Source of the DNA: a virus
Lineage: Duplodnaviria > Heunggongvirae > Uroviricota > Caudoviricetes
DNA: 32,407 nucleotides
Strand: one strand, 5' to 3'
Virus record (IMG/VR): IMGVR_UViG_2579779007_000009
Span: 1-32,407 of that record
Notes under the pieces: model-generated
Told to the model about the DNA's origin: nothing
Databases searched by the model: none
Seen by the model: the letters and a program-made list of their open reading frames with translations, nothing else
In this document: piece after piece, positions 3,355 through 26,995 of the stretch
How the letters are laid out: every line of letters begins with the position of its first letter
Position numbering within the stretch: position 1 is the first letter of the stretch
Position numbers and translations under genes: made by a program

Positions 3355-3626
3355 GTATTCGTATTGAAATTGGCGAACGTTATGTCGTTACCAGTGACAG
3401 CTTTCAGTTTATTCTCCACGAGAAAAAGAGAGCGGAAAGCGGTAAAAACGCCGGTCAGGAATGGCTGGCGGTGGTTGGTTATTACCCGAAATTAAGCCAG
3501 CTCGTTTCCGGCCTGATGCATCACGATATTCTGACCGGAAGCGCAAAATCTTTTGCTGATTTAAACGCGCAGGTTGAGCAACTCAGCAAGCGTTGTTCAG
3601 AGGCTTTTGGCTCACATGGACGTTAA
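3351..3626 (+). CDS. Small early hypothetical protein (position of P2 orf83), 91 aa
   Basis: ATG 3351 overlaps the upstream stop (ATGA); GGAGAA upstream. Confidence 0.6.
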   Translation: MSIRIEIGERYVVTSDSFQFILHEKKRAESGKNAGQEWLAVVGYYPKLSQLVSGLMHHDILTGSAKSFADLNAQVEQLSKRCSEAFGSHGR

Positions 3627-5904
3627 AGCCTCCGGGCGTTTTGTCCCTCCGTCAGCATTTGCCGCAGGCACCGGTAAGACGTTTACCGGTGCTTATGCAT
3701 GGAACGCGCCACGCGAGGCCGTCGGGCGCGAAAGACCCCTTACACGTGACGAGATGCGTCAGGTGCAAGGTGTTTTATCCACGATTAACCGCCTGCCTTA
3801 CTTTTTGCGTTCGCTGTTTACTTCACGCTATGACTACATCCGGCGCAATAAAAGCCCGGTGCACGGGTTTTATTTCCTCACATCCACTTTTCAGCGTCGT
3901 TTATGGCCGCGCATTGAGCGCGTGAATCAGCGCCATGAAATGAACACCGACGCGTCGTTGCTGTTTCTGGCAGAGCGTGACCACTATGCGCGCCTGCCTG
4001 GAATGAATGACAAGGAGCTGAAAAAGTTTGCCGCCCGTATCTCATCGCAGCTTTTCATGATGTATGAGGAACTCTGCGATGCATGGGTTGATGCGCATGG
4101 TGAAAAAGAATCGCTGTTTACGGATGAGGCGCAGGCTCACCTGTATGGTCATGTTGCTGGCGCTGCACGTGCTTTCAATATTTCCCCGCTCTACTGGAAA
4201 AAATACAGTAAAGGACAGATGACCACGAGGCAGGCATATTCTGCCATTGCCCGTCTGTTTAACGATGAGTGGTGGATTAGTCAGCTTAAAGGCCAGCGTA
4301 TGCGCTGGCATGAGGCGTTACTGATTGCTGTCGGGGAGGTCAATAAAGACCGTTCTCCTTATGCCAGTAAACATGCCATTCGTGATGTGCGTGCGCGCCG
4401 CCAGGCAAATCTGGAATTTCTTAAATCGTGTGACCTTGAAAACAGGGAAACCGGCGAGCGCATCGACCTTATCAGTAAGGTGATGGGCAGTATTTCTAAT
4501 CCAGAAATTCGCCGGATGGAGCTGATGAACACCATTGCCGGTATTGAGCGTTACGCCGCCGCAGAGGGTGATTTGGGGATGTTTATCACGCTGACCGCGC
4601 CGTCAAAGTATCACCCGACACGTCAGGTCGGAAAAGGCGAAAGTAAAACCGTTCAGCTTAATCACGGCTGGAACGATGAGGCATTTAATCCAAAGGATGC
4701 GCAGCGTTATCTCTGCCGTATCTGGAGCCTGATGCGCACGGCATTCAAGGATAATGATTTACAGGTCTACGGTTTGCGTGTCGTCGAGCCACACCACGAC
4801 GGAACGCCGCACTGGCATATGATGCTTTTTTGTCATCCACGCCAGCGTAACCAGATTATCGAAATCATGCGTCGCTATGCGCTCAAAGAGGATGGCGACG
4901 AAAGAGGAGCCGCGCGAAACCGTTTTCAGGCAAAACACCTTAACCGGGGCGGTGCTGCGGGGTATATCGCGAAATACATCTCAAAAAATATCGACGGCTA
5001 TGCACTGGATGGGCAGCTCGATAACGATACCGGCAGACCGCTGAAAGATACTGCCGCGGCTGTTACCGCATGGGCGTCAACGTGGCGCATTCCGCAATTT
5101 AAAACGGTTGGCCTGCCGACAATGGGGGCTTACCGTGAACTACGCAAATTGCCTCGCGGCGTCAGCATTGCTGATGAGTTTGACGAGCGCGTCGAGGCTG
5201 CACGCGCCGCCGCAGACAGTGGTGATTTTGCGCTGTATATCAGCGCGCAGGGTGGGGCAAATGTCCCGCGCGATTGCCAGACTGTCAGGGTTGCCCGTAG
5301 CCCGTCGGATGACGTTAACGAGTACGAGGAAGAAGTCGAGAGAGTGGTCGGCATTTACGCGCCGCATCTCGGCGCGCGTCATATTCATATCACCAGAACG
5401 ACGGACTGGCGCATTGTTCCGAAAGTGCCGGTCGTTGAGCCTTTGACTTTAAAAAGCGGCATCGCCGCGCCTCGGAGTCCTGTCAATAACTGTGGAAAGC
5501 CTGCCAGCAGTGATACTTCGTTACTGGCTCCCACGCCTTCTGAACACGCCGCAGCAGTGCTTAATCTGGTAGATGACGGTGTTATCGAATGGAATGACCC
5601 GGAGGTCGTGAGGGCGCTAAGGGGCGCATTAAAACACGACCTGAGAACGCCAAATCGTCAGCAAAGAAACGGAAGCCCGTTAAAACCGCATGAGATAGCG
5701 CCATCGGCCAGACTGACTAGGTCGGAACGAATGCAAATTACCCGTATCCGCGTTGACCTCGCTCAGAACGGTATCAGGCCGCAGCGATGGGAGCTTGAGG
5801 CGCTGGCGCGTGGCGCGACGGTAAAGTTTGACGGACGAAAGTTTATATATCCAATAAGTGGTGAGTGGAAGCAGTTTTTTAGTGGCTTTGATCTTTTTAA
5901 GTAA
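3616..5904 (+). CDS. A: Replication initiation protein A (rolling-circle nicking endonuclease), 762 aa
   Basis: Long ORF trimmed to Met at 3616 (MDVKASGRFVPPSAFAAGTGK...); contains VVEPHHDGTPHWHMMLF and YIAKYISKNIDGY, recalled from P2 gpA. Confidence 0.92.
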   Translation: MDVKASGRFVPPSAFAAGTGKTFTGAYAWNAPREAVGRERPLTRDEMRQVQGVLSTINRLPYFLRSLFTSRYDYIRRNKSPVHGFYFLTSTFQRRLWPRIERVNQRHEMNTDASLLFLAERDHYARLPGMNDKELKKFAARISSQLFMMYEELCDAWVDAHGEKESLFTDEAQAHLYGHVAGAARAFNISPLYWKKYSKGQMTTRQAYSAIARLFNDEWWISQLKGQRMRWHEALLIAVGEVNKDRSPYASKHAIRDVRARRQANLEFLKSCDLENRETGERIDLISKVMGSISNPEIRRMELMNTIAGIERYAAAEGDLGMFITLTAPSKYHPTRQVGKGESKTVQLNHGWNDEAFNPKDAQRYLCRIWSLMRTAFKDNDLQVYGLRVVEPHHDGTPHWHMMLFCHPRQRNQIIEIMRRYALKEDGDERGAARNRFQAKHLNRGGAAGYIAKYISKNIDGYALDGQLDNDTGRPLKDTAAAVTAWASTWRIPQFKTVGLPTMGAYRELRKLPRGVSIADEFDERVEAARAAADSGDFALYISAQGGANVPRDCQTVRVARSPSDDVNEYEEEVERVVGIYAPHLGARHIHITRTTDWRIVPKVPVVEPLTLKSGIAAPRSPVNNCGKPASSDTSLLAPTPSEHAAAVLNLVDDGVIEWNDPEVVRALRGALKHDLRTPNRQQRNGSPLKPHEIAPSARLTRSERMQITRIRVDLAQNGIRPQRWELEALARGATVKFDGRKFIYPISGEWKQFFSGFDLFK

Positions 5905-6131: not shown

Positions 6132-8339
6132 CTAAGCGGTAACATTTACCTCTTCTTCACCCATCATTGTTAAGTAATGTTTCTCATCACCAGTCATTCT
6201 GAATATTTTGTGCAAGAGTTCTAAGTATTTCTCAGGTTCAATATCGCCCATATCTGTTATGTTTATTGCGTCGGAGTGAGAGCCTCTGTTTATATATCTG
6301 TAAAAGGCACGGAAATGGCTGTTATTTTCATCATTTGTTAATTCAGTAAGCTTTGCCTCTAATGCGTCAGTTCTATGAACAAATGCAAAGTAATACTCAA
6401 GTATATTTCTCATAATATTGGGGATTATTATTTTGTTGATTTTTTTCTCTTTTGCATCTTTTAATACTTGCCAAAGGGATTGGTATTCATTTTGCACACT
6501 TTTTTTATCTATAGCACTAATGGTGCTAAATTCATTTTTGTTTATTCTGCCAAGAAAGTAGTCACGTTTAAAATTTATTCCTTTTTTAGAGGCGAGTTTT
6601 ATTAACTCATGGAAGAAATAAAGATTATGGGTGAGGATTATTATTTTTGATGAAATGCCTTTTTCAATTATGTCATGATGGATCATGGATGCTATGTCGA
6701 AAACATAGTTTTGAGATAAACTTGATATAGGATCATCTATAACTATGAGTTTATCACGCATATCAGTATCATTTTCATTTGTTTTACCCTTGCAACATTC
6801 TAAAAAATATAGAAACGTTATTAATGTTTTTTCACCTTCGCTTAATGAGCGATATACATCTTGTTTTCTATTGTTTCCATCGCGGGATATTATATACTTA
6901 TCTTTGAGTTCGGCGTGTTTATCAATGCTAAAACCAGAGATGCCAAGAAATTTAAGTCGTGAGTTTATTGCATCTATTGTTGCATCTACACTTGATGTTT
7001 TATTTCTTAGTTCATTGATTTCATTTGTGTTGATCTCTTCTTTTCTTTTTATTTCCTGCATGAAGGATGCAGCGTTTTCATATTTTTCTTGAAAGTTTCT
7101 TTCGCAGTCTGATAGTATTTCAAATTCCGCGCCACATAAGTCTCTGATTGCTGCCCACATCTTTTCGCGAATATCTATTTCGCTATTATTAAATCTTTTT
7201 ACTTTGTCATTGAACTCGTTAATTTTATTGTTGTATTGTTCTATATCTTCTAATAGTTTTTCCTCTATCGACTTTTCAAACTCCAGCACAATGCTTATAG
7301 ATGGATTCTCTATTTTATTATCCAATAGTTTAATGTTTTTTTCTGCAATAGTTTCTAATGCCTTAACATATGAAAGACTTTTATCTTTTTCGTCTTGGTT
7401 TATCACCTCACATGATAAAATGTTACTCTTTATTTCTTCATGATGATTTTTAATGGCATTATCATAAGATAGTTTTATTTGTTGTATTTGATCTACTTTT
7501 CTTGAGTATGTTTCATCAAAGATAGATTCAATGGCTTTAATAAAATTATCATCTATTGTGTCCCTTTGGCAAAATGGACAAATTTCTCCATTTAAATATA
7601 GCTCTTTGCCTTGTTTAATCCAATCAATATTTTGTAGCTCTTTTATTGCTTCAGATAAATAGCTGTTGCTAGAGTCAATAATTGGTGTGGATAATGTTTT
7701 TTGAGTTTCTTCAGATAAAACATATCCTTTATAAGGAGTTATCAGAGGTATTTCTTTTCCTTTAAACTCGAGAAGTTTGCTATAAGATTGTATTAATGAT
7801 TTTATATCAATATCAGTTTGTGGAGTATACTTTTTTAGATGGTAATAGAAAGTGGCTTTGCTTCCTATTTGACCTTTCATTAATTGTTTTAATTCTGAAC
7901 TTCTTATGTCTTTGGTCTTATTCCATATGGAATTTATGCATTCTTGCTCTTTTTTGTTTTTCGCTTCATGGAGTTTTTCGATAAATTCTTTTTTTTCTTT
8001 ATGCTGATGTGCTAGTGATTTGTTTAGCTCTTCTTTTTCAGATAGTATTTTTTCAATTTCTGCATTTTTTTGACTGAGGGTAAATATACCTTTTTGCTCT
8101 TTTGCATTATAAAAATTATCTTCTATATATTTTGAGTTGTAGACTAGGGTTCGATAATTATCGATGGGTTCGCATACACATTCCTTATAGGCGGTGTCTT
8201 TAGGATTGTAAAAATAATTTGATATGGTAGATTTTCCACAACCATTTTGTCCATACAATATGTTTATTTTTTTGGATAAATCTAACTCAGTAAAATATTC
8301 TTTATGATAGCTTGTTACGTTTTTGAGTTTTAATTTCAT
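6132..8339 (-). CDS. Cargo ABC/AAA_13-type ATPase with CxxC motif, RloC/PrrC-like candidate abortive-infection protein, 735 aa
   Basis: Walker A GQNGCGKST near the N-terminus; long charged/heptad-like insert containing CPFC; LSEGEK signature-like motif; Walker B LIVIDDP; LTHN; C-terminal RNILE plus downstream His; strongly AT-rich; AGAGGG ribosome-binding site. Confidence 0.7.
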   Translation of the reverse strand: MKLKLKNVTSYHKEYFTELDLSKKINILYGQNGCGKSTISNYFYNPKDTAYKECVCEPIDNYRTLVYNSKYIEDNFYNAKEQKGIFTLSQKNAEIEKILSEKEELNKSLAHQHKEKKEFIEKLHEAKNKKEQECINSIWNKTKDIRSSELKQLMKGQIGSKATFYYHLKKYTPQTDIDIKSLIQSYSKLLEFKGKEIPLITPYKGYVLSEETQKTLSTPIIDSSNSYLSEAIKELQNIDWIKQGKELYLNGEICPFCQRDTIDDNFIKAIESIFDETYSRKVDQIQQIKLSYDNAIKNHHEEIKSNILSCEVINQDEKDKSLSYVKALETIAEKNIKLLDNKIENPSISIVLEFEKSIEEKLLEDIEQYNNKINEFNDKVKRFNNSEIDIREKMWAAIRDLCGAEFEILSDCERNFQEKYENAASFMQEIKRKEEINTNEINELRNKTSSVDATIDAINSRLKFLGISGFSIDKHAELKDKYIISRDGNNRKQDVYRSLSEGEKTLITFLYFLECCKGKTNENDTDMRDKLIVIDDPISSLSQNYVFDIASMIHHDIIEKGISSKIIILTHNLYFFHELIKLASKKGINFKRDYFLGRINKNEFSTISAIDKKSVQNEYQSLWQVLKDAKEKKINKIIIPNIMRNILEYYFAFVHRTDALEAKLTELTNDENNSHFRAFYRYINRGSHSDAINITDMGDIEPEKYLELLHKIFRMTGDEKHYLTMMGEEEVNVTA

Positions 8340-8813: not shown

Positions 8814-9848
8814 TCAGCCGTTGTCAGTGTCCAGTGAGTAGTTTTTAAAGCGGATGACCTCCTGACCGAGCCAGCCGTTTATTTCCCGAATTCTGTCCTG
8901 TAACGGGATAAGCTCATTGCGGACAAAGACCTTTGCCACTTTCTCAATATCGCCCAGCGACCCGACGTTTTCCGGCTTGCCACCCATCAACTGAAAGGGG
9001 ATGCGGTGCGCGTCAAGCAGGTCAGCGGCGCTGGCTTTTTTGATATTAAAAAAATCGTCCTTCGTTGCCACTTCACTGAGCGGGATAATTTTAATGCCGT
9101 CGGATTTCCCCTGCGGGGCATAGAGAAACAGGTTTTTAAAGTTGTTGCGGCCTTTCGACTTCACCATGTTTTCGCGAAGCATTTCGATATCGTTGCGATC
9201 CTGCACGGCATCAGTAACGTACATGATGTATCCGGCATGTGCGCCGTTTTCGTAATACTTGCGGCGGAACAGCGTGGCCGACTCATTCAGCCAGGCAGAG
9301 TTAAGGGCGCTGAGATATTCCGGCAGGCCGTACAGCTCCTGATTAATATCCGGCTCCAGCAGGTGAAACACGGAGCCGGGCGTGAAAGGTGTCGGCTCGT
9401 TGAAGGACGGCACCCACCAGTAAACATCCTCCTCCACCCCACGGCGGGTATATTTTGCCGGCGAGGTTTCCAGTCTGATGACCTTACCGGTGGTGCTGTA
9501 ACGCTTTTCCAGAAACGCATTACCGAACACCAGAAAATCCAGCACAAAGCGGCTGAAATCCTGCTGGGAAAGCCACGGGTGCGGAATAAACGTTGAAGCC
9601 AGAATATTACGTTTGACGTAAATCGGTGAGCTGTGATGTACGGCAGCACGCAGGCTTTTTGCCAGACCGGTAAAGCTGACCGGTGGCTCATACCATCTGC
9701 CGTTACTGATGCACTCGACGTAATCCAGAATGTCACGGCGGTCGAGTACCGGCACCGGCTCACCAAAGGTGAATGCCTCCATTTTCGGGGCGCTGGCGGT
9801 CATTGTTTTCACCGCTGGCTGCGGTGTTTTCCCTTTTTTCTTGCTCAT
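8814..9848 (-). CDS. Q: Portal protein Q, 344 aa
   Basis: Full-length ORF whose translation matches recalled P2 gpQ; start overlaps the P stop (ATGA). Confidence 0.92.
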   Translation of the reverse strand: MSKKKGKTPQPAVKTMTASAPKMEAFTFGEPVPVLDRRDILDYVECISNGRWYEPPVSFTGLAKSLRAAVHHSSPIYVKRNILASTFIPHPWLSQQDFSRFVLDFLVFGNAFLEKRYSTTGKVIRLETSPAKYTRRGVEEDVYWWVPSFNEPTPFTPGSVFHLLEPDINQELYGLPEYLSALNSAWLNESATLFRRKYYENGAHAGYIMYVTDAVQDRNDIEMLRENMVKSKGRNNFKNLFLYAPQGKSDGIKIIPLSEVATKDDFFNIKKASAADLLDAHRIPFQLMGGKPENVGSLGDIEKVAKVFVRNELIPLQDRIREINGWLGQEVIRFKNYSLDTDNG

Positions 9849-18702: not shown

Positions 18703-19046
18703 CAGCGCGTTATCTCGGAATGAATCGCAGTGATGGCCTGACTGTCACTGACCTTGAGCATATCAGCCAGAGTATCGGCGATATCCTGCGCACACCGGTC
18801 GGCTCACGGGTGATGCGTCGTGATTACGGCTCGTTGCTGGCGTCAATGATTGACCAGCCGCAGACCCCGGCGCTTGAGTTGCAGATTAAGGTCGCCTGTT
18901 ACATGGCAGTACTGAAATGGGAACCCCGCGTCACCCTGTCATCCGTCACCACTGAGCGCAGTTTTGACGGGCGAATGACGGTCACGTTAACCGGCCAGCA
19001 CAACGACACCGGCCAGCCACTTTCGTTAACCATCCCTGTGAGTTGA
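18699..19046 (+). CDS. W: Baseplate wedge protein W (gp25-like), 115 aa
   Basis: Synteny and size match P2 gpW; start overlaps the V stop. Confidence 0.88.
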   Translation: MTARYLGMNRSDGLTVTDLEHISQSIGDILRTPVGSRVMRRDYGSLLASMIDQPQTPALELQIKVACYMAVLKWEPRVTLSSVTTERSFDGRMTVTLTGQHNDTGQPLSLTIPVS

Positions 19047-19050
19047 AACC

Positions 19051-19959
19051 ATGCCGATTATCGACCTAAACCAGCTACCCGCACCGGATGTGGTCGAGGA
19101 GCTGGACTTTGAAACCATTCTCGCCGAACGCAAGGCGACACTGATTTCCCTTTACCCGGAAGACCAGCAGGAGGCGGTCGCCCGTACCCTGACGCTGGAA
19201 TCCGAGCCTCTCGTCAAACTGCTGGAGGAAAATGCTTATCGTGAGCTTATCTGGCGTCAGCGTGTGAATGAGGCCGCACGGGCGGTGATGCTGGCCTGTG
19301 CCGCCGGTAATGACCTTGATGTGATTGGTGCCAATTACAACACCACGCGCCTGACTATCACCCCGGCAGATGATTCGACCCTCCCGCCGACACCGGCAGT
19401 GATGGAATCTGACACCGATTATCGTCTGCGTATTCAGCAGGCGTTTGAAGGTTTAAGCGTCGCCGGGTCGGTGGGTGCCTATCAGTATCATGGTCGCAGT
19501 GCTGACGGGCGTGTCGCGGATATCTCTGTCACCAGTCCGTCTCCGGCCTGCGTCACCATCTCTGTGCTGTCACGTGAGAATAACGGTGTCGCATCCGAAG
19601 ACCTGCTGGCGGTGGTGCGTAACGCCCTGAATGGCGAGGACGTCAGGCCGGTGGCCGACCGCGTGACCGTGCAGTCTGCCGCCATCGTTGAATACCAGAT
19701 AAACGCCACGCTTTACCTTTACCCTGGTCCCGAAAGCGAACCCATACGCGCTGCCGCCGTGAAAAAACTGGAAGCGTACATCACGGCACAGCACCGGCTG
19801 GGGCGCGACATCCGTCTGTCTGCCATTTATGCCGCTTTGCATGTGGAGGGCGTGCAGCGTGTCGAGCTGGCGGCACCACTGGCCGACATCGTGCTCAACA
19901 GTACGCAGGCGTCTTTCTGTACCGAATACTGCGTCGTGACCGGAGGCTCGGATGAGTGA
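19051..19959 (+). CDS. J: Baseplate wedge protein J, 302 aa
   Basis: Synteny and size match P2 gpJ. Confidence 0.88.
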   Translation: MPIIDLNQLPAPDVVEELDFETILAERKATLISLYPEDQQEAVARTLTLESEPLVKLLEENAYRELIWRQRVNEAARAVMLACAAGNDLDVIGANYNTTRLTITPADDSTLPPTPAVMESDTDYRLRIQQAFEGLSVAGSVGAYQYHGRSADGRVADISVTSPSPACVTISVLSRENNGVASEDLLAVVRNALNGEDVRPVADRVTVQSAAIVEYQINATLYLYPGPESEPIRAAAVKKLEAYITAQHRLGRDIRLSAIYAALHVEGVQRVELAAPLADIVLNSTQASFCTEYCVVTGGSDE

Positions 19960-20482
19960 TTCGCGACTGCTGCCGACCGGCTCATCACCGCTTGAAGTCG
20001 CCGCCGCAAAAGCCTGTGCGGAAATTGAAAAAACGCCGGTCAGTATTCGTGAGCAGTGGAACCCGGATACCTGTCCGGCAAATCTGCTTCCGTGGCTGGC
20101 GTGGGCGTTTTCGGTCGACAGGTGGGATGAAAAGTGGCCGGAAGCGACCAAACGCGCCGTTATTCGCGATGCCTATTTCATCCACTGTCATAAAGGCACT
20201 ATAGGTGCAATCCGGCGTGTGGTGGAGCCGCTGGGCTATCTCATCAACGTGACGGAGTGGTGGGAAACCAGTGACCCGCCGGGCACCTTCCGGCTTGATA
20301 TTGGTGTACTGGAAAGCGGCATCACAGAGGCAATGTATCAGGAAATGGAACGGCTGATTGCTGATGCCAAACCTGCAAGCCGCCACCTTATTGGCCTGAA
20401 CATTACCCGGGACATTCCCGGCTACCTGTTCGCCGGTAGTGTGGCTTATGACGGCGATGTAATTACGGTTTACCCCGGATAA
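19952..20482 (+). CDS. I: Baseplate protein I, 176 aa
   Basis: Synteny and size match P2 gpI; start overlaps the J stop. Confidence 0.88.
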   Translation: MSDSRLLPTGSSPLEVAAAKACAEIEKTPVSIREQWNPDTCPANLLPWLAWAFSVDRWDEKWPEATKRAVIRDAYFIHCHKGTIGAIRRVVEPLGYLINVTEWWETSDPPGTFRLDIGVLESGITEAMYQEMERLIADAKPASRHLIGLNITRDIPGYLFAGSVAYDGDVITVYPG

Positions 20483-20492
20483 GTGAGGAATA

Positions 20493-22742
20493 ATGAGCAC
20501 AAAATTCAGAACCGTTATCACCACTGCCGGTGCAGCAAAGCTGGCAGCGGCAACCGCACCGGGAGGGCGGAAGGTCAACATTACCACGATGGCCGTCGGG
20601 GATGGCGGGGGTAAATTGCCTGTCCCGGATGCCGGACAGACCGGGCTTATCCACGAAGTCTGGCGACATGCGCTGAACAAAATCAGTCAGGACAAACGAA
20701 ACAGTAATTATATTATCGCAGAGCTGGTTATTCCGCCGGAGGTGGGCGGTTTCTGGATGCGTGAGCTTGGCCTGTACGATGATGCGGGAACGTTAATTGC
20801 CGTGGCGAACATGGCCGAAAGTTATAAGCCAGCTCTTGCCGAAGGCTCAGGGCGTTCGCAGACCTGCCGCATGGTCATCATCGTCAGCAGTGTGGCCTCA
20901 GTGGAGCTGACCATTGACACTACAACGGTGATGGCAACGCAGGATTACGTTGATGACAAAATTGCAGAACATGAACAGTCACGACGTCACCCGGACGCCT
21001 CGCTGACCGCCAAAGGTTTTACTCAGTTAAGCAGTGCGACCAACAGCACGTCTGAAACACTGGCCGCAACGCCGAAAGCGGTAAAGGCCGCGTATGACCT
21101 TGCTAACGGGAAATATACTGCGCAGGATGCCACCACAGCGCGAAAAGGTCTTGTCCAGCTCAGTAGTGCCACCAACAGCACGTCTGAAACGCTCGCCGCA
21201 ACACCAAAAGCGGTAAAGGCCGCGTATGACCTTGCTAACGGGAAATACACTGCACAGGATGCCACCACAGCGCGAAAAGGTCTTGTCCAGCTCAGTAGCG
21301 TCACCAACAGCGATTCTGAAACGCTTGCGGCAACGCCAAAGGCGGTTAAGACAGCGTATGACCTTGCTAACGGGAAATACACTGCACAGGATGCCACCAC
21401 CGCGCGGAAAGGCCTTGTCCAGCTCAGTAGCGCCACCAACAGTGATTCTGAAACGCAGGCCGCAACACCAAAAGCGGTGAAGTCTGCCTATGACAATGCT
21501 GAAAAACGTCTTCAGAAAGATCAGAACGGTGCGGATATTCCTGATAAAGGACGCTTCCTGAGTAACATTAATGTTTACAGCAAAGGTGAAGTGGATAAGA
21601 AAAAGGGAATGCGAAAGTATTCGTTTGCAGCCCCTGCAAATGTCGTTGCCGGGAAGTGGTATCCCGTTATCTTTCGCCGTGCTGCCAGCCTTTCAGGAGA
21701 AATGGCATCCCGCGTCGTTATTTCCACTGGTTGTTATAACAGCGATTATGTAATGAATAACTGCGAGTTTAATGGCATGGTTATGCCCGGAGGCTGGACT
21801 GATCGTGGTTCATATGCGGCAGGTTATTTCTGGACGTATCAGACTAATGAGCGTTCAATCCATTCCATTGTTACAAGCCTGAAAGATGATGATGTATGTA
21901 GTGTTTTTTATGTTGAAGCCAGAGCTTTCCCTGTGCAAATTCTTGCAGAGGAAGGGCTAACGGTTATTGTTCCGACAGAGGATTATGTCGTCGGTCAAAC
22001 GACATATAAGTGGGGGGCAACTAATCCTGCTACAGAAAGCACGAACGCACAGGCTATTCTGGATTTTAAAAATGGGCGCGGTTATTACTGCTCACATCCA
22101 TTTATTTCCAGCCTTTCGGGAAATGCTGCAACAGCAACGAAGTTAGCGAACGCAAGAAATATTAATGGTGTCAGATTTGATGGCTCTGCTGATATAAATA
22201 TTAATACACTGGTATCCAGAAACCGTGTTACTGCATTAGGTGGGAGCGTAAAGGGGACACCAGGTATTCAGATGTATGAGGCATACAACAATGGCTACCC
22301 AACAGCCTATGGTAATGTGCTTCATCTCACTGGCGTAACCGCAGTAGGAGAGGGTGAGTTACTTATTGGCTGGAGTGGAACCAGCGGTGCTCATGCTCCG
22401 GCATATATTCGCTCCCGACGAGATACCACAGATGCTAACTGGTCTGGATGGGCGCAACTATATACAACTGCTCATAAACCCTCAGCGGGAGATGTTGGTG
22501 CATACACCAAAGCTGAATCAGATTCACGTTATGTGAGAGACATGCGGCTGGGCGGTGCATCTACATATAAACCAGCAAATAATGGTACTACATGGACGCA
22601 TCAGGCTCCGTCAGGTTGCGTATATACCGGCATTATTGTTCAGGATACCGGCTCAAACTCTGCCGATAACATTGGTGGCGTATATTACAGACCGGTGCAG
22701 AAATACATTAACGGGACATGGTATAACGTGGCGCAGGTATAA
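20493..22742 (+). CDS. H: Tail fibre protein H, 749 aa, with internal tandem repeats and a compositionally distinct distal part
   Basis: N-terminus MSTKFRTVITTAGAAKLAAATA... as recalled for P2 gpH; 44-aa tandem repeats; followed by assembly chaperone G. Confidence 0.9.
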   Translation: MSTKFRTVITTAGAAKLAAATAPGGRKVNITTMAVGDGGGKLPVPDAGQTGLIHEVWRHALNKISQDKRNSNYIIAELVIPPEVGGFWMRELGLYDDAGTLIAVANMAESYKPALAEGSGRSQTCRMVIIVSSVASVELTIDTTTVMATQDYVDDKIAEHEQSRRHPDASLTAKGFTQLSSATNSTSETLAATPKAVKAAYDLANGKYTAQDATTARKGLVQLSSATNSTSETLAATPKAVKAAYDLANGKYTAQDATTARKGLVQLSSVTNSDSETLAATPKAVKTAYDLANGKYTAQDATTARKGLVQLSSATNSDSETQAATPKAVKSAYDNAEKRLQKDQNGADIPDKGRFLSNINVYSKGEVDKKKGMRKYSFAAPANVVAGKWYPVIFRRAASLSGEMASRVVISTGCYNSDYVMNNCEFNGMVMPGGWTDRGSYAAGYFWTYQTNERSIHSIVTSLKDDDVCSVFYVEARAFPVQILAEEGLTVIVPTEDYVVGQTTYKWGATNPATESTNAQAILDFKNGRGYYCSHPFISSLSGNAATATKLANARNINGVRFDGSADININTLVSRNRVTALGGSVKGTPGIQMYEAYNNGYPTAYGNVLHLTGVTAVGEGELLIGWSGTSGAHAPAYIRSRRDTTDANWSGWAQLYTTAHKPSAGDVGAYTKAESDSRYVRDMRLGGASTYKPANNGTTWTHQAPSGCVYTGIIVQDTGSNSADNIGGVYYRPVQKYINGTWYNVAQV
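21012..21500 (+). repeat. In-frame tandem repeat inside H: about 3.7 copies of a 132-bp (44-aa) unit
   Basis: Unit K-G-L/F-x-Q-L-S-S-A/V-T-N-S-x-S-E-T-L-A-A-T-P-K-A-V-K-A-A-Y-D-L-A-N-G-K-Y-T-A-Q-D-A-T-T-A-R read directly, with copies starting at 21012, 21144, 21276 and 21408. Confidence 0.9.
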
Positions 22743-22745
22743 TTT

Positions 22746-23273
22746 ATGCAGCATTTAAAAAATATTACGGCGGGTAATCCAAAAACGGTTGAACAATATC
22801 AATTGACAAAGGACTTTGATGTTGTCTGGTTTTTTTCAGAAGATGGTAAGAACTGGTACGAAGAACAAAAGTATTTTGCTGATGACACGATAAAAATAGC
22901 GTACGACAAAGATAATATCATCCACTATGTGGAAAAGGATGTGACAGCTATCAGACCGGATGGATTAAGTGTTGTTGAAGTGGCGGATATTACTGCTAAC
23001 CGACGGGCGGACATTTCAGGGAACTGGATGTTTAAGGACGGCAAAGTGATTAAACGCATTTATACGGCAGAGGAATTACAGCAGCAGGCAGAAATTCAGA
23101 AAGCCAGACTTCTTGCAGATGCTGAATCCGTGATTTTGCCGCTGGAGCGCGCGGTCAGACTGAACATGGCAACAGATGAGGAGCGTAGCCGACTGGAATC
23201 ATGGGAACGCTACAGCGTTCTGGTCAGTCGTGTGGATCCTGCAAATCCTGAATGGCCGGAAATGCCGCAATAA
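22746..23273 (+). CDS. G: Tail fibre assembly chaperone G, 175 aa
   Basis: Immediately downstream of H; size matches P2 gpG. Confidence 0.85.
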
Positions 23274-23312
23274 GTTGTATTAGCTTACATATCTATGGCA
23301 CAGAGTAAAGCC

Positions 23313-23350
23313 TAATCTGACAGTCCGCTCTGTGCCAGGAGCGGAAGTCG
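23313..23350. repeat. Left arm of an imperfect inverted repeat flanking the G-FI cargo island
   Basis: AATCTGACAGTC...GAGCGGAAGT here pairs with the reverse complement of 25584..25624; coordinates hand-counted. Confidence 0.6.
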
Positions 23351-23455
23351 ATTGATGACTCACTACTAATTCGTCTTGCTTACTCCTAATGTTGATAAAT
23401 GTGAATAAGATTAATACTATAAAGAATTATAATTTAATAGACGGCGGTTTAGGTA

Positions 23456-24382
23456 ATGGGCGAGTTCTCAAAATATGTCGGCGAGGTGGGCGAAGAGATA
23501 GTCAATGACTTTCTGAAACTCTTTGGATGGAAAAACCTATGTAGTAACAAGCAATTAGATTGCTGCGTGGGAGAACATGCTAAAAAGACACATGGAATAG
23601 ATGCTTTGTATGTCTACAACTCTATGCTTCAAAAACAATCATTAGTAAGCGTTGTTGTTTCTGCAAAGTATTCATCAGTACCTTACGATAAAGTCAAAAC
23701 TACTTTTCGCTCACATTTCAAAGACTTGGCACACACCATTGAATGTTATTCAAAATCCCAGTTTAAAAGAACCATAACAAGACAATTTCCAGGTAGTTCA
23801 AGAAAAGAAGATATTGGGGTTTTGTTTTATTTAAATAATGATGAAAGCGATTCAAATGATAATATTAAAGGTGAAATCATCAATCATAGAATCGATTCTA
23901 CCCTCAAGTTCAACGCCATACATCTCGTTGATAACGCAAGAGCAAAATTTTTATACAACTCGATAAGCTTTATCAAGAAAAAGCATGGTGAAATATCTTT
24001 TTTCTGTCTTAACACTACCTTAAATGTTTCATCTTCAACAAGACATTCTAAAATAATGCCTGTTGAATACATTACCTCTCCAATAATTCCCATTTCTGTG
24101 CCTGATGATAATGGGCGAAAATTTATATTACTTTGCGATTTTAATTACAGTAAAGAATCACTAGGGTTGGTGTATAAATTAGCTAGAAAGCTTTGTTCCG
24201 ATTTCGCAAATCATTATGAGATTTATTTCAATAAATATAATAAACTCACAGACTCCCCTTCAGTTGATGAAGTCAAAATGGCGCAAAATTTTGAAGATGG
24301 CTCTGAGGATGTCGTTGGAGATATTACATTAATCGTTGATTCTTATAATAGCACCTTCAGGAGCATTTCTGATGAAAAATGA
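23456..24382 (+). CDS. Cargo protein 1 of the G-FI island, 308 aa; possible PD-(D/E)xK-like nuclease N-terminal domain
   Basis: AT-rich ORF; N-terminal order of acidic helix (GEVGEE), HGIDALYVY strand and VVVSAK strand; no homolog recognised by recall. Confidence 0.7.
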   Translation: MGEFSKYVGEVGEEIVNDFLKLFGWKNLCSNKQLDCCVGEHAKKTHGIDALYVYNSMLQKQSLVSVVVSAKYSSVPYDKVKTTFRSHFKDLAHTIECYSKSQFKRTITRQFPGSSRKEDIGVLFYLNNDESDSNDNIKGEIINHRIDSTLKFNAIHLVDNARAKFLYNSISFIKKKHGEISFFCLNTTLNVSSSTRHSKIMPVEYITSPIIPISVPDDNGRKFILLCDFNYSKESLGLVYKLARKLCSDFANHYEIYFNKYNKLTDSPSVDEVKMAQNFEDGSEDVVGDITLIVDSYNSTFRSISDEK

Positions 24383-25529
24383 TATTGATTTCATCCCCTC
24401 CGGAGATGAACTGAAAAATCTTGTGAGCCAGCAGAACTGTAGCTCTACAATGATCAATAATCTACTTAAAGAAAGAGGGCTTTTTTGCGGAGTGTCTGAA
24501 AAATCAGGCACAGTTCCAAACTTGATCACCTCTTTACTAAGCCCTGATGAATCTTATGATTTACTAAGCAGTATTAAAACAAAGGAAAAATTAGATAAAG
24601 TAAATTTCAGGAATTTTGATCTTAAGCAAGATGTTGATTTGCTTGGTGAAGTTAGTGGGTTTGTAGATGTTAGTAAAATCACAAAAAATGGTTACATTAA
24701 TTATGAGATATCAGATTTTAGCGATTTTACATCTCTAGATGGTAGAAGTAATAATTCCGTAATAATGGAGTTCGAAATTTGCAAGACAGATATTCTAGAT
24801 GATTGGTATATAACTGAGAAGTTCTTTAAAGGATCTGTGGAAATCAAGAAAGACGTTAATGGCATCACTGGTAACTCCCAGCTTTTAATGAATGTAAAAC
24901 TAAATCACACATCTCCGGAAACTAAAGAAATAGCTGAAAATGTCATAACCTTGATAGAGGAGCATTTGGAAAGAAATAATATAATTGAACATTCGCCTCA
25001 TCGAGGTAGAGTTCTGATGGATGATTTTGAAAATGAAAACAGAGTAAAATTCCTTAATGAATTAGCATCCCTTCATATTGGATACTTATTCTACCATCAA
25101 AAAATAGATGATGTTCATTTTAATCCGGATCATTCTACTGGTTACGAAAAACAATCAGATGCTGTGACTAATTTTCTCGAAAAAGATATTGACCAGTATA
25201 GAGTCAAAGGAAATCTAGAGAATATAATATCTATCAAATGGAAACACATACACCCGTATGTACGTGTTACTAAGGTTGTCGCAAGTTACACAATTAGCTA
25301 TGAATCCTATTCAGGTGAATGTAAGGTTGCATACGAGTTTAGTGAATATGGAAGAAAAACCCCTGTTAATCCTGAATTGTGCATTACCTTTATAAATATA
25401 AAGGTTAAAGGTGCGTCGCCCTCTAAAATACATGATATTCAATCAAACATTATGCGTGAGATTGAATTACGTAAAGTAGAATTGCTTACTAAATATAGAA
25501 AAGTTGCTGATGCTGAATCAAACAGCTAA
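24372..25529 (+). CDS. Cargo protein 2 of the G-FI island, 385 aa; unknown function
   Basis: ATG 24372 preceded by AGGAG and overlapping the end of cargo protein 1 by 11 nt (operon coupling); AT-rich; no motif recognised. Confidence 0.7.
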   Translation: MKNDIDFIPSGDELKNLVSQQNCSSTMINNLLKERGLFCGVSEKSGTVPNLITSLLSPDESYDLLSSIKTKEKLDKVNFRNFDLKQDVDLLGEVSGFVDVSKITKNGYINYEISDFSDFTSLDGRSNNSVIMEFEICKTDILDDWYITEKFFKGSVEIKKDVNGITGNSQLLMNVKLNHTSPETKEIAENVITLIEEHLERNNIIEHSPHRGRVLMDDFENENRVKFLNELASLHIGYLFYHQKIDDVHFNPDHSTGYEKQSDAVTNFLEKDIDQYRVKGNLENIISIKWKHIHPYVRVTKVVASYTISYESYSGECKVAYEFSEYGRKTPVNPELCITFINIKVKGASPSKIHDIQSNIMREIELRKVELLTKYRKVADAESNS

Positions 25530-25583: not shown

Positions 25584-25624
25584 CGAACTTCCGCTCCTCG
25601 CTCAAAGCAGACTGTCAGATTTGA
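25584..25624. repeat. Right arm of the imperfect inverted repeat flanking the G-FI cargo island
   Basis: Reverse complement TCAAATCTGACAGTC...GAGGAGCGGAAGTTCG matches the left arm at 23313..23350. Confidence 0.6.
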
Positions 25625-25804: not shown

Positions 25805-26995
25805 ATGAGTGACTATCATCACGGCGTGCAGGTGCTGGAGATTAACGACGGCACCCGCGTCATTTCCACCGTATCCACGGCCATTGTCGGCATGGTCTGC
25901 ACGGCCAGCGATGCGGATGCGGAAACCTTCCCCCTCAATAAACCTGTGCTGATTACCAATGTGCAGAGCGCAATTGCAAAGGCCGGTAAAAAAGGCACGC
26001 TGGCGGCATCGTTGCAGGCCATCGCCGACCAGTCAAAACCGGTCACCGTTGTCGTGCGCGTGGAAGACGGCACCGGCGATGACGAAGAAACGAAACTCGC
26101 GCAGACCGTTTCCAATATCATCGGCACCACCGACGAAAACGGTCAGTACACCGGACTGAAAGCCCTGCTGGCGGCGGAGTCGGTAACCGGTGTTAAACCG
26201 CGTATTCTCGGTGTGCCGGGACTGGATACCAAAGAGGTGGCTGTTGCACTGGCATCCGTCTGTCAGAAGCTGCGCGCTTTCGGATATATCAGCGCATGGG
26301 GCTGTAAGACTATTTCCGAGGTGAAAGCCTACCGCCAGAATTTCAGCCAGCGTGAGCTGATGGTCATCTGGCCGGATTTCCTCGCATGGGATACGGTCAG
26401 CAGCACCACCGCCACCGCGTATGCCACCGCCCGTGCGCTGGGTCTGCGCGCTAAAATCGACCAGGAGCAGGGCTGGCATAAAACGCTGTCCAATGTCGGG
26501 GTAAACGGTGTTACCGGCATCAGCGCCTCTGTATTCTGGGATTTGCAGGAGTCCGGCACCGATGCTGACCTGTTGAACGAGTCAGGTGTCACAACGCTGA
26601 TTCGCCGTGACGGTTTCCGCTTCTGGGGTAACCGTACCTGCTCTGATGACCCACTGTTCCTCTTTGAAAACTACACCCGCACCGCGCAGGTGCTGGCCGA
26701 CACGATGGCTGAGGCGCACATGTGGGCGGTGGATAAGCCCATCACCGCAACGCTGATTCGCGACATCGTTGACGGCATCAATGCCAAATTCCGTGAGCTG
26801 AAAACAAACGGCTATATCGTGGATGCGACCTGCTGGTTCAGCGAAGAATCCAACGATGCGGAAACCCTCAAGGCCGGAAAACTGTATATCGACTATGACT
26901 ATACCCCGGTGCCTCCTCTCGAAAACCTGACCCTGCGCCAGCGTATTACTGATAAATATCTGGCAAATCTGGTCACCTCGGTTAACAGCAATTAA
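25805..26995 (+). CDS. FI: Contractile tail sheath protein FI, 396 aa
   Basis: Translation and size match recalled P2 gpFI; strong GGAG upstream. Confidence 0.92.
   Translation: MSDYHHGVQVLEINDGTRVISTVSTAIVGMVCTASDADAETFPLNKPVLITNVQSAIAKAGKKGTLAASLQAIADQSKPVTVVVRVEDGTGDDEETKLAQTVSNIIGTTDENGQYTGLKALLAAESVTGVKPRILGVPGLDTKEVAVALASVCQKLRAFGYISAWGCKTISEVKAYRQNFSQRELMVIWPDFLAWDTVSSTTATAYATARALGLRAKIDQEQGWHKTLSNVGVNGVTGISASVFWDLQESGTDADLLNESGVTTLIRRDGFRFWGNRTCSDDPLFLFENYTRTAQVLADTMAEAHMWAVDKPITATLIRDIVDGINAKFRELKTNGYIVDATCWFSEESNDAETLKAGKLYIDYDYTPVPPLENLTLRQRITDKYLANLVTSVNSN

Follow-up and report, generated by a model that had tools for sequence, protein, structure and literature searches.

The tandem 132-bp repeats found within a tail fibre gene of a tailed phage (Caudoviricetes; IMG/VR virus record IMGVR_UViG_2579779007_000009, positions 1 to 32,407, the 32,407-nucleotide stretch analyzed here and referred to as the window) raise the question of what the repeats encode and whether, and by what mechanism, their number changes. 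A repeat search of the window revealed in-register copies beginning at positions 21012, 21144 and 21276, and Tandem Repeats Finder, applied to positions 19000-24000, detected one array only, at 21039-21494, with a period of 132, 3.5 copies, 90% matches, no indels and a score of 702. The full array, at 21012-21494, is in frame with a plus-strand ORF of 749 aa (20493-22742), translation of which placed the unit starts at aa 174, 218, 262 and 306, corresponding to nt 21012, 21144, 21276 and 21408. It comprises three full 44-aa units and a fourth, 25-aa core, equivalent to 3.5-3.7 copies. The coordinates of 21012-21500 and the ∼3.7 copies given in a preliminary description of this DNA were correct, that span corresponding to 3.7 units in the frame of the ORF.

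The ORF was identified as gene H, encoding a tail fibre protein (20493-22742 including the stop codon), on the basis of an N-terminal PF12571 domain, four matches to PF03406 and its identity to P2 gpH. Residues 1-151 (20493-20945, plus strand) constitute the N-terminal baseplate-adaptor domain (PF12571, Phage_tail_fib, E 1.5e-58). In the Pfam search, PF03406 (Phage_fiber_2, IPR005068) matched H in four stretches with a whole-protein score of 264.9 bits (cutoff 22; E 1.6e-80), the best stretch aligning H aa 170-210 with profile positions 1-41 of 42. A Pfam match to TPR_20 was below its cutoff (21.1 versus 25) and was disregarded. Beyond the repeats, a Mu S-like neck (...YDNAEKRLQKDQNGADIPDKGRFLSNINV; 21483-21578, plus strand) aligned to residues ∼140-173 of Mu tail fibre protein S (PDB 5yvq and 8ju3), and the distal tip (aa 638-747; 22404-22733, plus strand) was related to the C-terminal tip of Mu S/S′, with a phmmer match to 8ju3 residues 385-486 at a stretch E of 1.3e-16. 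This places the repeats between a P2-type N-terminal adaptor and a Mu S-like distal part.

The surroundings of the ORF are those expected of a P2-type fibre gene. Immediately upstream, gene I (19952-20482, plus strand; PF09684, Tail_P2_I, E 2.3e-55), which encodes the fibre-holding wedge protein of the baseplate, has the length and position of P2 I, and gene G downstream (22746-23273, plus strand; PF02413, Caudo_TAP, E 3e-34) encodes a tail fibre assembly protein 77% identical to P2 gpG. The window has the gene order V-W-J-I-H-G, with the ORF order and lengths of the P2 operon. That the protein carrying the PF03406 repeats is a tail fibre protein is consistent with its PF12571 domain, with gene I upstream and the Caudo_TAP gene downstream and with its Mu S-like tip; the same product is annotated as “tail fiber protein” in 41 complete Escherichia coli genomes. 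Judged from its sequence, H is a P2-type gene in which the P2 adaptor is retained, the repeat shaft is longer than in P2 and the distal module is not that of P2. PDB sequence searches returned Mu S entries as the only related sequences and no solved structure of an array with several units, matches to penicillin-binding proteins at E ∼0.5 being noise, and a literature search on PF03406 yielded passing mentions only.

Inspection of the units reveals that each consists of a conserved 25-aa core (KGLVQLSSATNSxSETLAATPKAVK) and a 19-aa linker, and that the last unit always ends after the core. All four units lie on the plus strand. Unit 1 (21012-21143, aa 174-217) begins KGFTQLSS and is matched by PF03406. 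Unit 2 (21144-21275, aa 218-261) and unit 1 are distinguished by 14 nt and 2 aa and share an identical run of at most 41 nt, and unit 3 (21276-21407, aa 262-305) is distinguished from unit 2 by 14 nt and 3 aa, with a longest identical run of 47 nt. Unit 4 (21408-21494) retains the first 25 residues, KGLVQLSSATNSDSETQAATPKAVK, as a core that extends to 21482, followed by SAYD, and is divergent beyond; the junction with the distal module is located here. The 44-aa consensus proposed previously (KGLVQLSSATNSxSETLAATPKAVKAAYDLANGKYTAQDATTAR) is identical to unit 2. The accompanying statement that the copies differ by few substitutions was appropriate for the protein, in which units 1 to 3 differ pairwise by 2, 3 and 5 residues, but not for the DNA, in which 14 (units 1 and 2), 14 (units 2 and 3) and 25 (units 1 and 3) of 132 nt differ.

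These differences fall predominantly at third codon positions of the H frame (10 of 14, 17 of 25 and 10 of 14). Within the window, 11-19% of bases differ between units, mostly at synonymous sites, with dS values of 0.36-0.82 and dN/dS of ∼0.11. The divergence at synonymous sites, together with the low dN/dS, indicates that the units are old duplicates under purifying selection rather than products of a recent expansion. The array in the window has not recently expanded.

All four H units fit the PF03406 model end to end, with no essential difference from the family. As in PF03406, units of ∼40 residues are arranged in tandem (132 nt, or 44 aa, with no indels); the period in H is 44 aa, and the last unit is shortened to its 25-aa core. 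The statement in the preliminary description that tail fibres of P2-like and related phages carry such repeats is borne out by the four matches to the Pfam family named “Phage tail fibre repeat”. Its assignment of the gene as H was likewise upheld, both by the P2 gene order, with I (PF09684) and G (PF02413) as neighbours, and by comparison with P2 gpH itself (AAD03286.1, 669 aa), which is 96% identical to H over aa 1-251, a region covering the adaptor, unit 1 and the core of unit 2. In contrast to the four cores of H, P2 gpH has two, and its sequence continues after the last core with TVMDETNKKAPLNSPALTG..., whereas H continues with the Mu S-like neck and a different shaft. Similarity between the two proteins stops after the core of unit 2 and resumes only in the last ∼65-75 aa, at 45% identity. 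In place of the distal receptor-binding part of P2, H carries a different distal module.

In a 2026 cryo-EM and AF3 preprint on the P2 particle, gpH is presented as a homotrimer ∼54 nm long, in which an N-terminal adaptor held by the C terminus of gpI precedes “two repeat domains”, extension domains, a knob and a Mu-like tip (10.64898/2026.09.14.750843). The two repeat domains agree with the two cores counted in P2 H and locate the repeats in the proximal shaft. If H is built like P2 gpH, the four units present here would form a longer proximal shaft. An AlphaFold2 model of aa 140-420 as a single chain had a mean pLDDT of 43, too low for use, which is unsurprising for one chain of an obligate trimer.

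A single copy of this repeat is present in Mu tail fibre protein S/S′ (PDB 5yvq, 8ju3 and 9ki1), and the neck that comes after it, DNAxxRLxKDxNGADIPxK, is shared with H. Mu differs from H in having only that one repeat, a different domain for N-terminal attachment and an invertible G segment accompanied by the Gin invertase. An invertible segment of the Mu G, P1 C or Min type was considered on account of the Mu S-like tip and rejected, as no comparable inverted repeats or invertase flank H. The sole inverted pair spanning distal H (20645-20664 and 23103-23122, 20 nt) is 80% complementary, which is the chance level, and no invertase was present near H, the neighbouring ORFs being G and GapS4a/b.

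The adaptor and the four-unit array of H recur in Peduovirus P22H4, in Escherichia phage 9W and in E. coli prophage alleles. P22H4 is 97.3% identical to H over nt 1-1643, and its last 600 nt differ. An E. coli prophage allele of 793 aa (WP_063611712.1) shares the distal domain of H and has a fifth unit that is a duplicate of unit 3. P2 H has 669 aa and two cores, that of fiAA91-ss 692 aa and three, that of P22H4 748 aa and four, and the H of the window 749 aa and four. The excess of 80 aa over P2 equals two extra units (88 aa) less 8 aa after the last core (419 versus 427 aa). The earlier remark that this H is longer than a P2 protein of ∼670 aa is therefore accurate and is explained by the two extra units.

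To count units among relatives, the core pattern was applied first, followed by an in-register identity test, so that units beginning VQLSS were included. Copy number ranges from 1 to 6 among relatives that share the N-terminal domain of H, with a 44-aa period throughout. Among the best 120 database proteins sharing this domain, many of them partial entries, the core occurs 2-6 times (3-6 when cores missed by the pattern are counted), a range that favours many copies because the list is ranked by bit score; gaps of 88 aa in it each represent one core missed by the pattern, the real register being 44 aa. The 76 complete IMG/VR alleles have two (n = 13), three (n = 3), four (n = 50) or five (n = 10) copies, and GTDB species representatives (Citrobacter, Salmonella, Buttiauxella, Scandinavium and others) have 1-4; the IMG/VR and protein-database counts include draft assemblies. 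When the part of H after the last core was clustered into distal classes, copy number was found to be mostly tied to distal class. Four distal classes, that of the window and three others, nevertheless each include an allele that is off by one or two whole units.

Within the distal class of the window, an H of 2250 bp was present in 41 complete E. coli genomes from unrelated sources, at 97.6-98.8% identity, and, with the same unit order, in nine IMG/VR contigs. Two complete genomes, PapRG-06-3 and SWHEFF_58, have an H of 2118 bp with three units in the order 1-3-4, and two others, EH01-18-02 and ECE228, have an H of 2382 bp with five units (793 aa, order 1-2-3-3-4). Four units are thus found in 41 of the 45 complete E. 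coli genomes of this class, and the four-unit state is its stable majority. Units 3 and 4 of the five-copy allele differ by 1 nt, which indicates a recent duplication of unit 3, and the three five-copy records have identical flanks, consistent with one event rather than three. Of 1776 flank sites, 31 differ between the two three-unit alleles, which probably represent separate lineages. The expectation that copy number would be variable is therefore confirmed at two levels, with 1-6 units across relatives and 3, 4 or 5 within one distal class.

To compare unit order, each unit of every allele was assigned to the nearest unit of the window. The order 1-2-3-4 was commonest and is common to eight distal classes. 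Other orders observed were 1-2, 1-3-4, 1-2-4, 1-2-3-3-4, 1-2-2-3-4, 1-3-3-4 and 1-2-2-4. Such variants are as would be produced by unequal crossover and gene conversion within a tandem array.

The reading favoured by these data, to which we assign a probability of ∼0.82, is that the array represents four PF03406 copies in the proximal shaft and that whole-unit changes in copy number most likely arise through unequal recombination or slipped misalignment. The four units would build the proximal shaft of a trimeric P2-type tail fibre, situated between the N-terminal adaptor, held on the baseplate by gpI, and a distal receptor-binding part that in this phage is Mu S-like and would be folded with the help of gpG. 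Occasional changes by whole 132-bp units would keep the reading frame and would lengthen or shorten the shaft, leaving the adaptor and the receptor-binding tip undisturbed. Such changes most probably arise when neighbouring units, which share exact runs of 41-47 nt, undergo unequal homologous recombination or slipped misalignment. Identity of 41-47 nt suffices for homologous or slipped-strand events in E. coli, and divergence of ∼10% should keep recombination between units rare. The rarity expected from such divergence fits the 41:4 ratio of four-unit to other genomes. We infer both this recombination mechanism and a fixed fibre length per unit.

The pattern of polymorphism within the array bears on exchange between units. 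Among nine four-unit alleles of the window's class, nucleotide diversity was 0.057 in the array, 0.018 in the N-terminal part and 0.011 in the distal part, an excess of 3-5 times over the flanks. Of 74 distinct variants in the array, 64 are at third positions. Of 65 synonymous variants, 38 carry a base found at the corresponding offset of another unit, against 22.3 expected under a null that admits synonymous alternatives only and leaves transition bias outside the model. This excess suggests exchange between units. It is also conceivable, but on the whole rather unlikely, that shaft unit number is under host-specific selection, with fibre reach adjusted to how deep the O-antigen or capsule layer is and divergence between units stabilizing a favoured length. 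Synonymous divergence might then be maintained because it suppresses recombination, and occasional gene conversion between units would account for silent diversity being 3-5 times higher in the array than in its flanks.

Mosaicism of P2-type tail fibres is textbook knowledge. DNA similarity to H ends at nt 726 of H in P2 and Wphi, at nt 854-870 in fiAA91-ss, STYP1, PSP3 and HQ103, at nt 990 in P2_AC1, and at nt 1059 in phages that have the Mu-like neck in common with H. The 25-aa cores of units 2, 3 and 4 terminate at positions 726, 854-870 and 990, respectively, which indicates that distal modules are always joined right after a core. Junctions of this kind fit the long-standing view of tail fibre genes as mosaics, and the gpH of L-413C has been summarized as a mosaic (PMC7460101). 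In P2-type fibres, the array separates the conserved half that attaches to the baseplate from the exchangeable half that binds the receptor, and the natural junctions right after the 25-aa core offer a ready-made splice point for fibre swapping.

The same junctions raise the alternative that the array is a fixed structural module and that copy number differs only through horizontal swaps of whole proximal or distal modules. In its favour, every distal junction falls exactly after a repeat core, the order 1-2-3-4 is conserved across eight distal classes and two cores are present in all 15 alleles of the P2-type distal class. Against this, one-unit differences occur within a single distal class between alleles with closely similar flanks, and the extra unit of the five-copy allele, only 1 nt from its neighbour, points to local duplication rather than import. 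We therefore consider module swapping improbable as the only source of copy-number differences.

Unequal recombination or slippage acting occasionally on old units is also to be distinguished from a hypermutable contingency locus, at which high-frequency copy switching would vary host range within a population. Copy number is indeed polymorphic, and a receptor-binding fibre is a typical target of diversification. However, contingency repeats have near-identical units and change frequently, whereas the units here diverge at 11-19% of bases, with the dS values of 0.36-0.82 given above, and the gene has the same length in 41 of 45 complete genomes of the allele. In addition, a unit length that is a multiple of 3 allows no on/off frameshift, and the repeats are in the proximal shaft and not in the receptor-binding tip. 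Contingency switching is consequently very unlikely.

An artefact of assembly, in which the four copies would reflect collapse or expansion of the repeat, is scarcely credible: many database homologues are indeed “partial” at contig ends and short-read assemblies do break in H, but the same 2250-bp gene and unit order recur in the 41 complete genomes and nine IMG/VR contigs, and ordinary reads can tell apart units that differ by 14-25 nt.

Pfam already contains the repeat family as a curated entry and the gene is a standard P2-type H, and in this respect the finding is ordinary. The polymorphism of three, four and five units within one allele and the excess silent diversity of the array are small additions. 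The practical value of the array lies in annotation and phage engineering, and no new biological question is opened. For annotation, the array accounts for differences in length between H alleles and for spurious antisense ORFs; it may also be one source of the numerous truncated “partial” fibre proteins at the ends of draft contigs.

The spurious opposite-strand ORFs attributed to the repeats in the preliminary description are represented by a 138-aa minus-strand ORF at 21023-21439, which lies wholly inside the array and is a by-product of its periodicity. That this ORF is a real gene overlapping H can be dismissed, its 138 aa free of internal stop codons notwithstanding, because it is confined to the array, where one stop-free unit yields a stop-free frame across all units, because substitutions between units are concentrated at third positions of H, and because a Pfam search with it returned no family above cutoff. 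The concentration of differences at H third positions, with dN/dS of ∼0.11, identifies H as the frame under selection. A second extra ORF, of 84 aa, is present inside the array at 21226-21480, on the plus strand in another frame.

To compare diversity within the tail fibre gene H, the in-frame array of 132-bp tandem repeat units (window 21012-21494) was set against those of eight further four-unit H alleles of the same distal class, i.e. the class defined by the sequence following the last repeat core (L015, L034, L035, L039, L047, L055, L071, and L078). Nucleotide diversity was 0.057 in the array versus 0.018 and 0.011 in the rest of H, a 3-5-fold excess. Nearly all of the array variants among these alleles were silent, and they often matched the base found at the identical offset in another unit, which suggests gene conversion between units.

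In E. coli Jnd12 (NZ_CP095820.1; locus L112, 1-2500), the IS21-family element ISEc12 (istA/istB) lies directly upstream of a truncated H. Because the match to the window begins at nucleotide 601 of H, within repeat unit 1, with ISEc12 adjoining, the fibre gene of this strain is interrupted inside the array. Among the matches listed, a substantial fraction of the nearest database homologues were labelled "partial" and stopped where their contigs did. Breaks within or close to H are evidently common in short-read assemblies, which is relevant to any copy-number census built on draft genomes.

Two ORFs spanning 23456-25529, flanked by the sheath gene (25805-26995; PF04984) and by gene G for tail fibre assembly, scored above the NCBIfam cutoffs for GapS4a (291 bits against 270) and GapS4b (324 bits against 300), families assigned to an anti-phage system. 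In P2, the corresponding position is occupied by the Z/fun locus. In E. coli EH01-18-02 and ECE228, two complete genomes with five-unit H genes of the window's distal class, the region following G is likewise annotated with this gapS4a/gapS4b pair. As mechanically called, the GapS4b ORF starts at a TTG codon and overlaps GapS4a by 47 nt (24336-24382). In the RefSeq-annotated version of this pair the overlap is 11 nt, and the NCBIfam match to GapS4b does not start until residue 20. Translation probably initiates at a codon downstream of this TTG.

The GapS4a/b cassette is exactly enclosed by an inverted repeat with 35-nt arms (23314-23348 and 25587-25621; 89% complementary). A short GC-rich hairpin (CCGCTC...GAGCGG) is present within each of the two arms, which may therefore represent terminators or cassette boundaries.

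A further candidate defence gene, on the minus strand at 6132-8339, encodes a 735-residue AAA_13 ATPase (PF13166, 349 bits) that matched the PADLOC candidate defence family PDC-S06 (E = 2.3e-254). It is flanked by a large ORF (3574-5904) on one side and the portal gene (8814-9848; PF04860) on the other, a site that corresponds to the tin/old hotspot on the P2 map.
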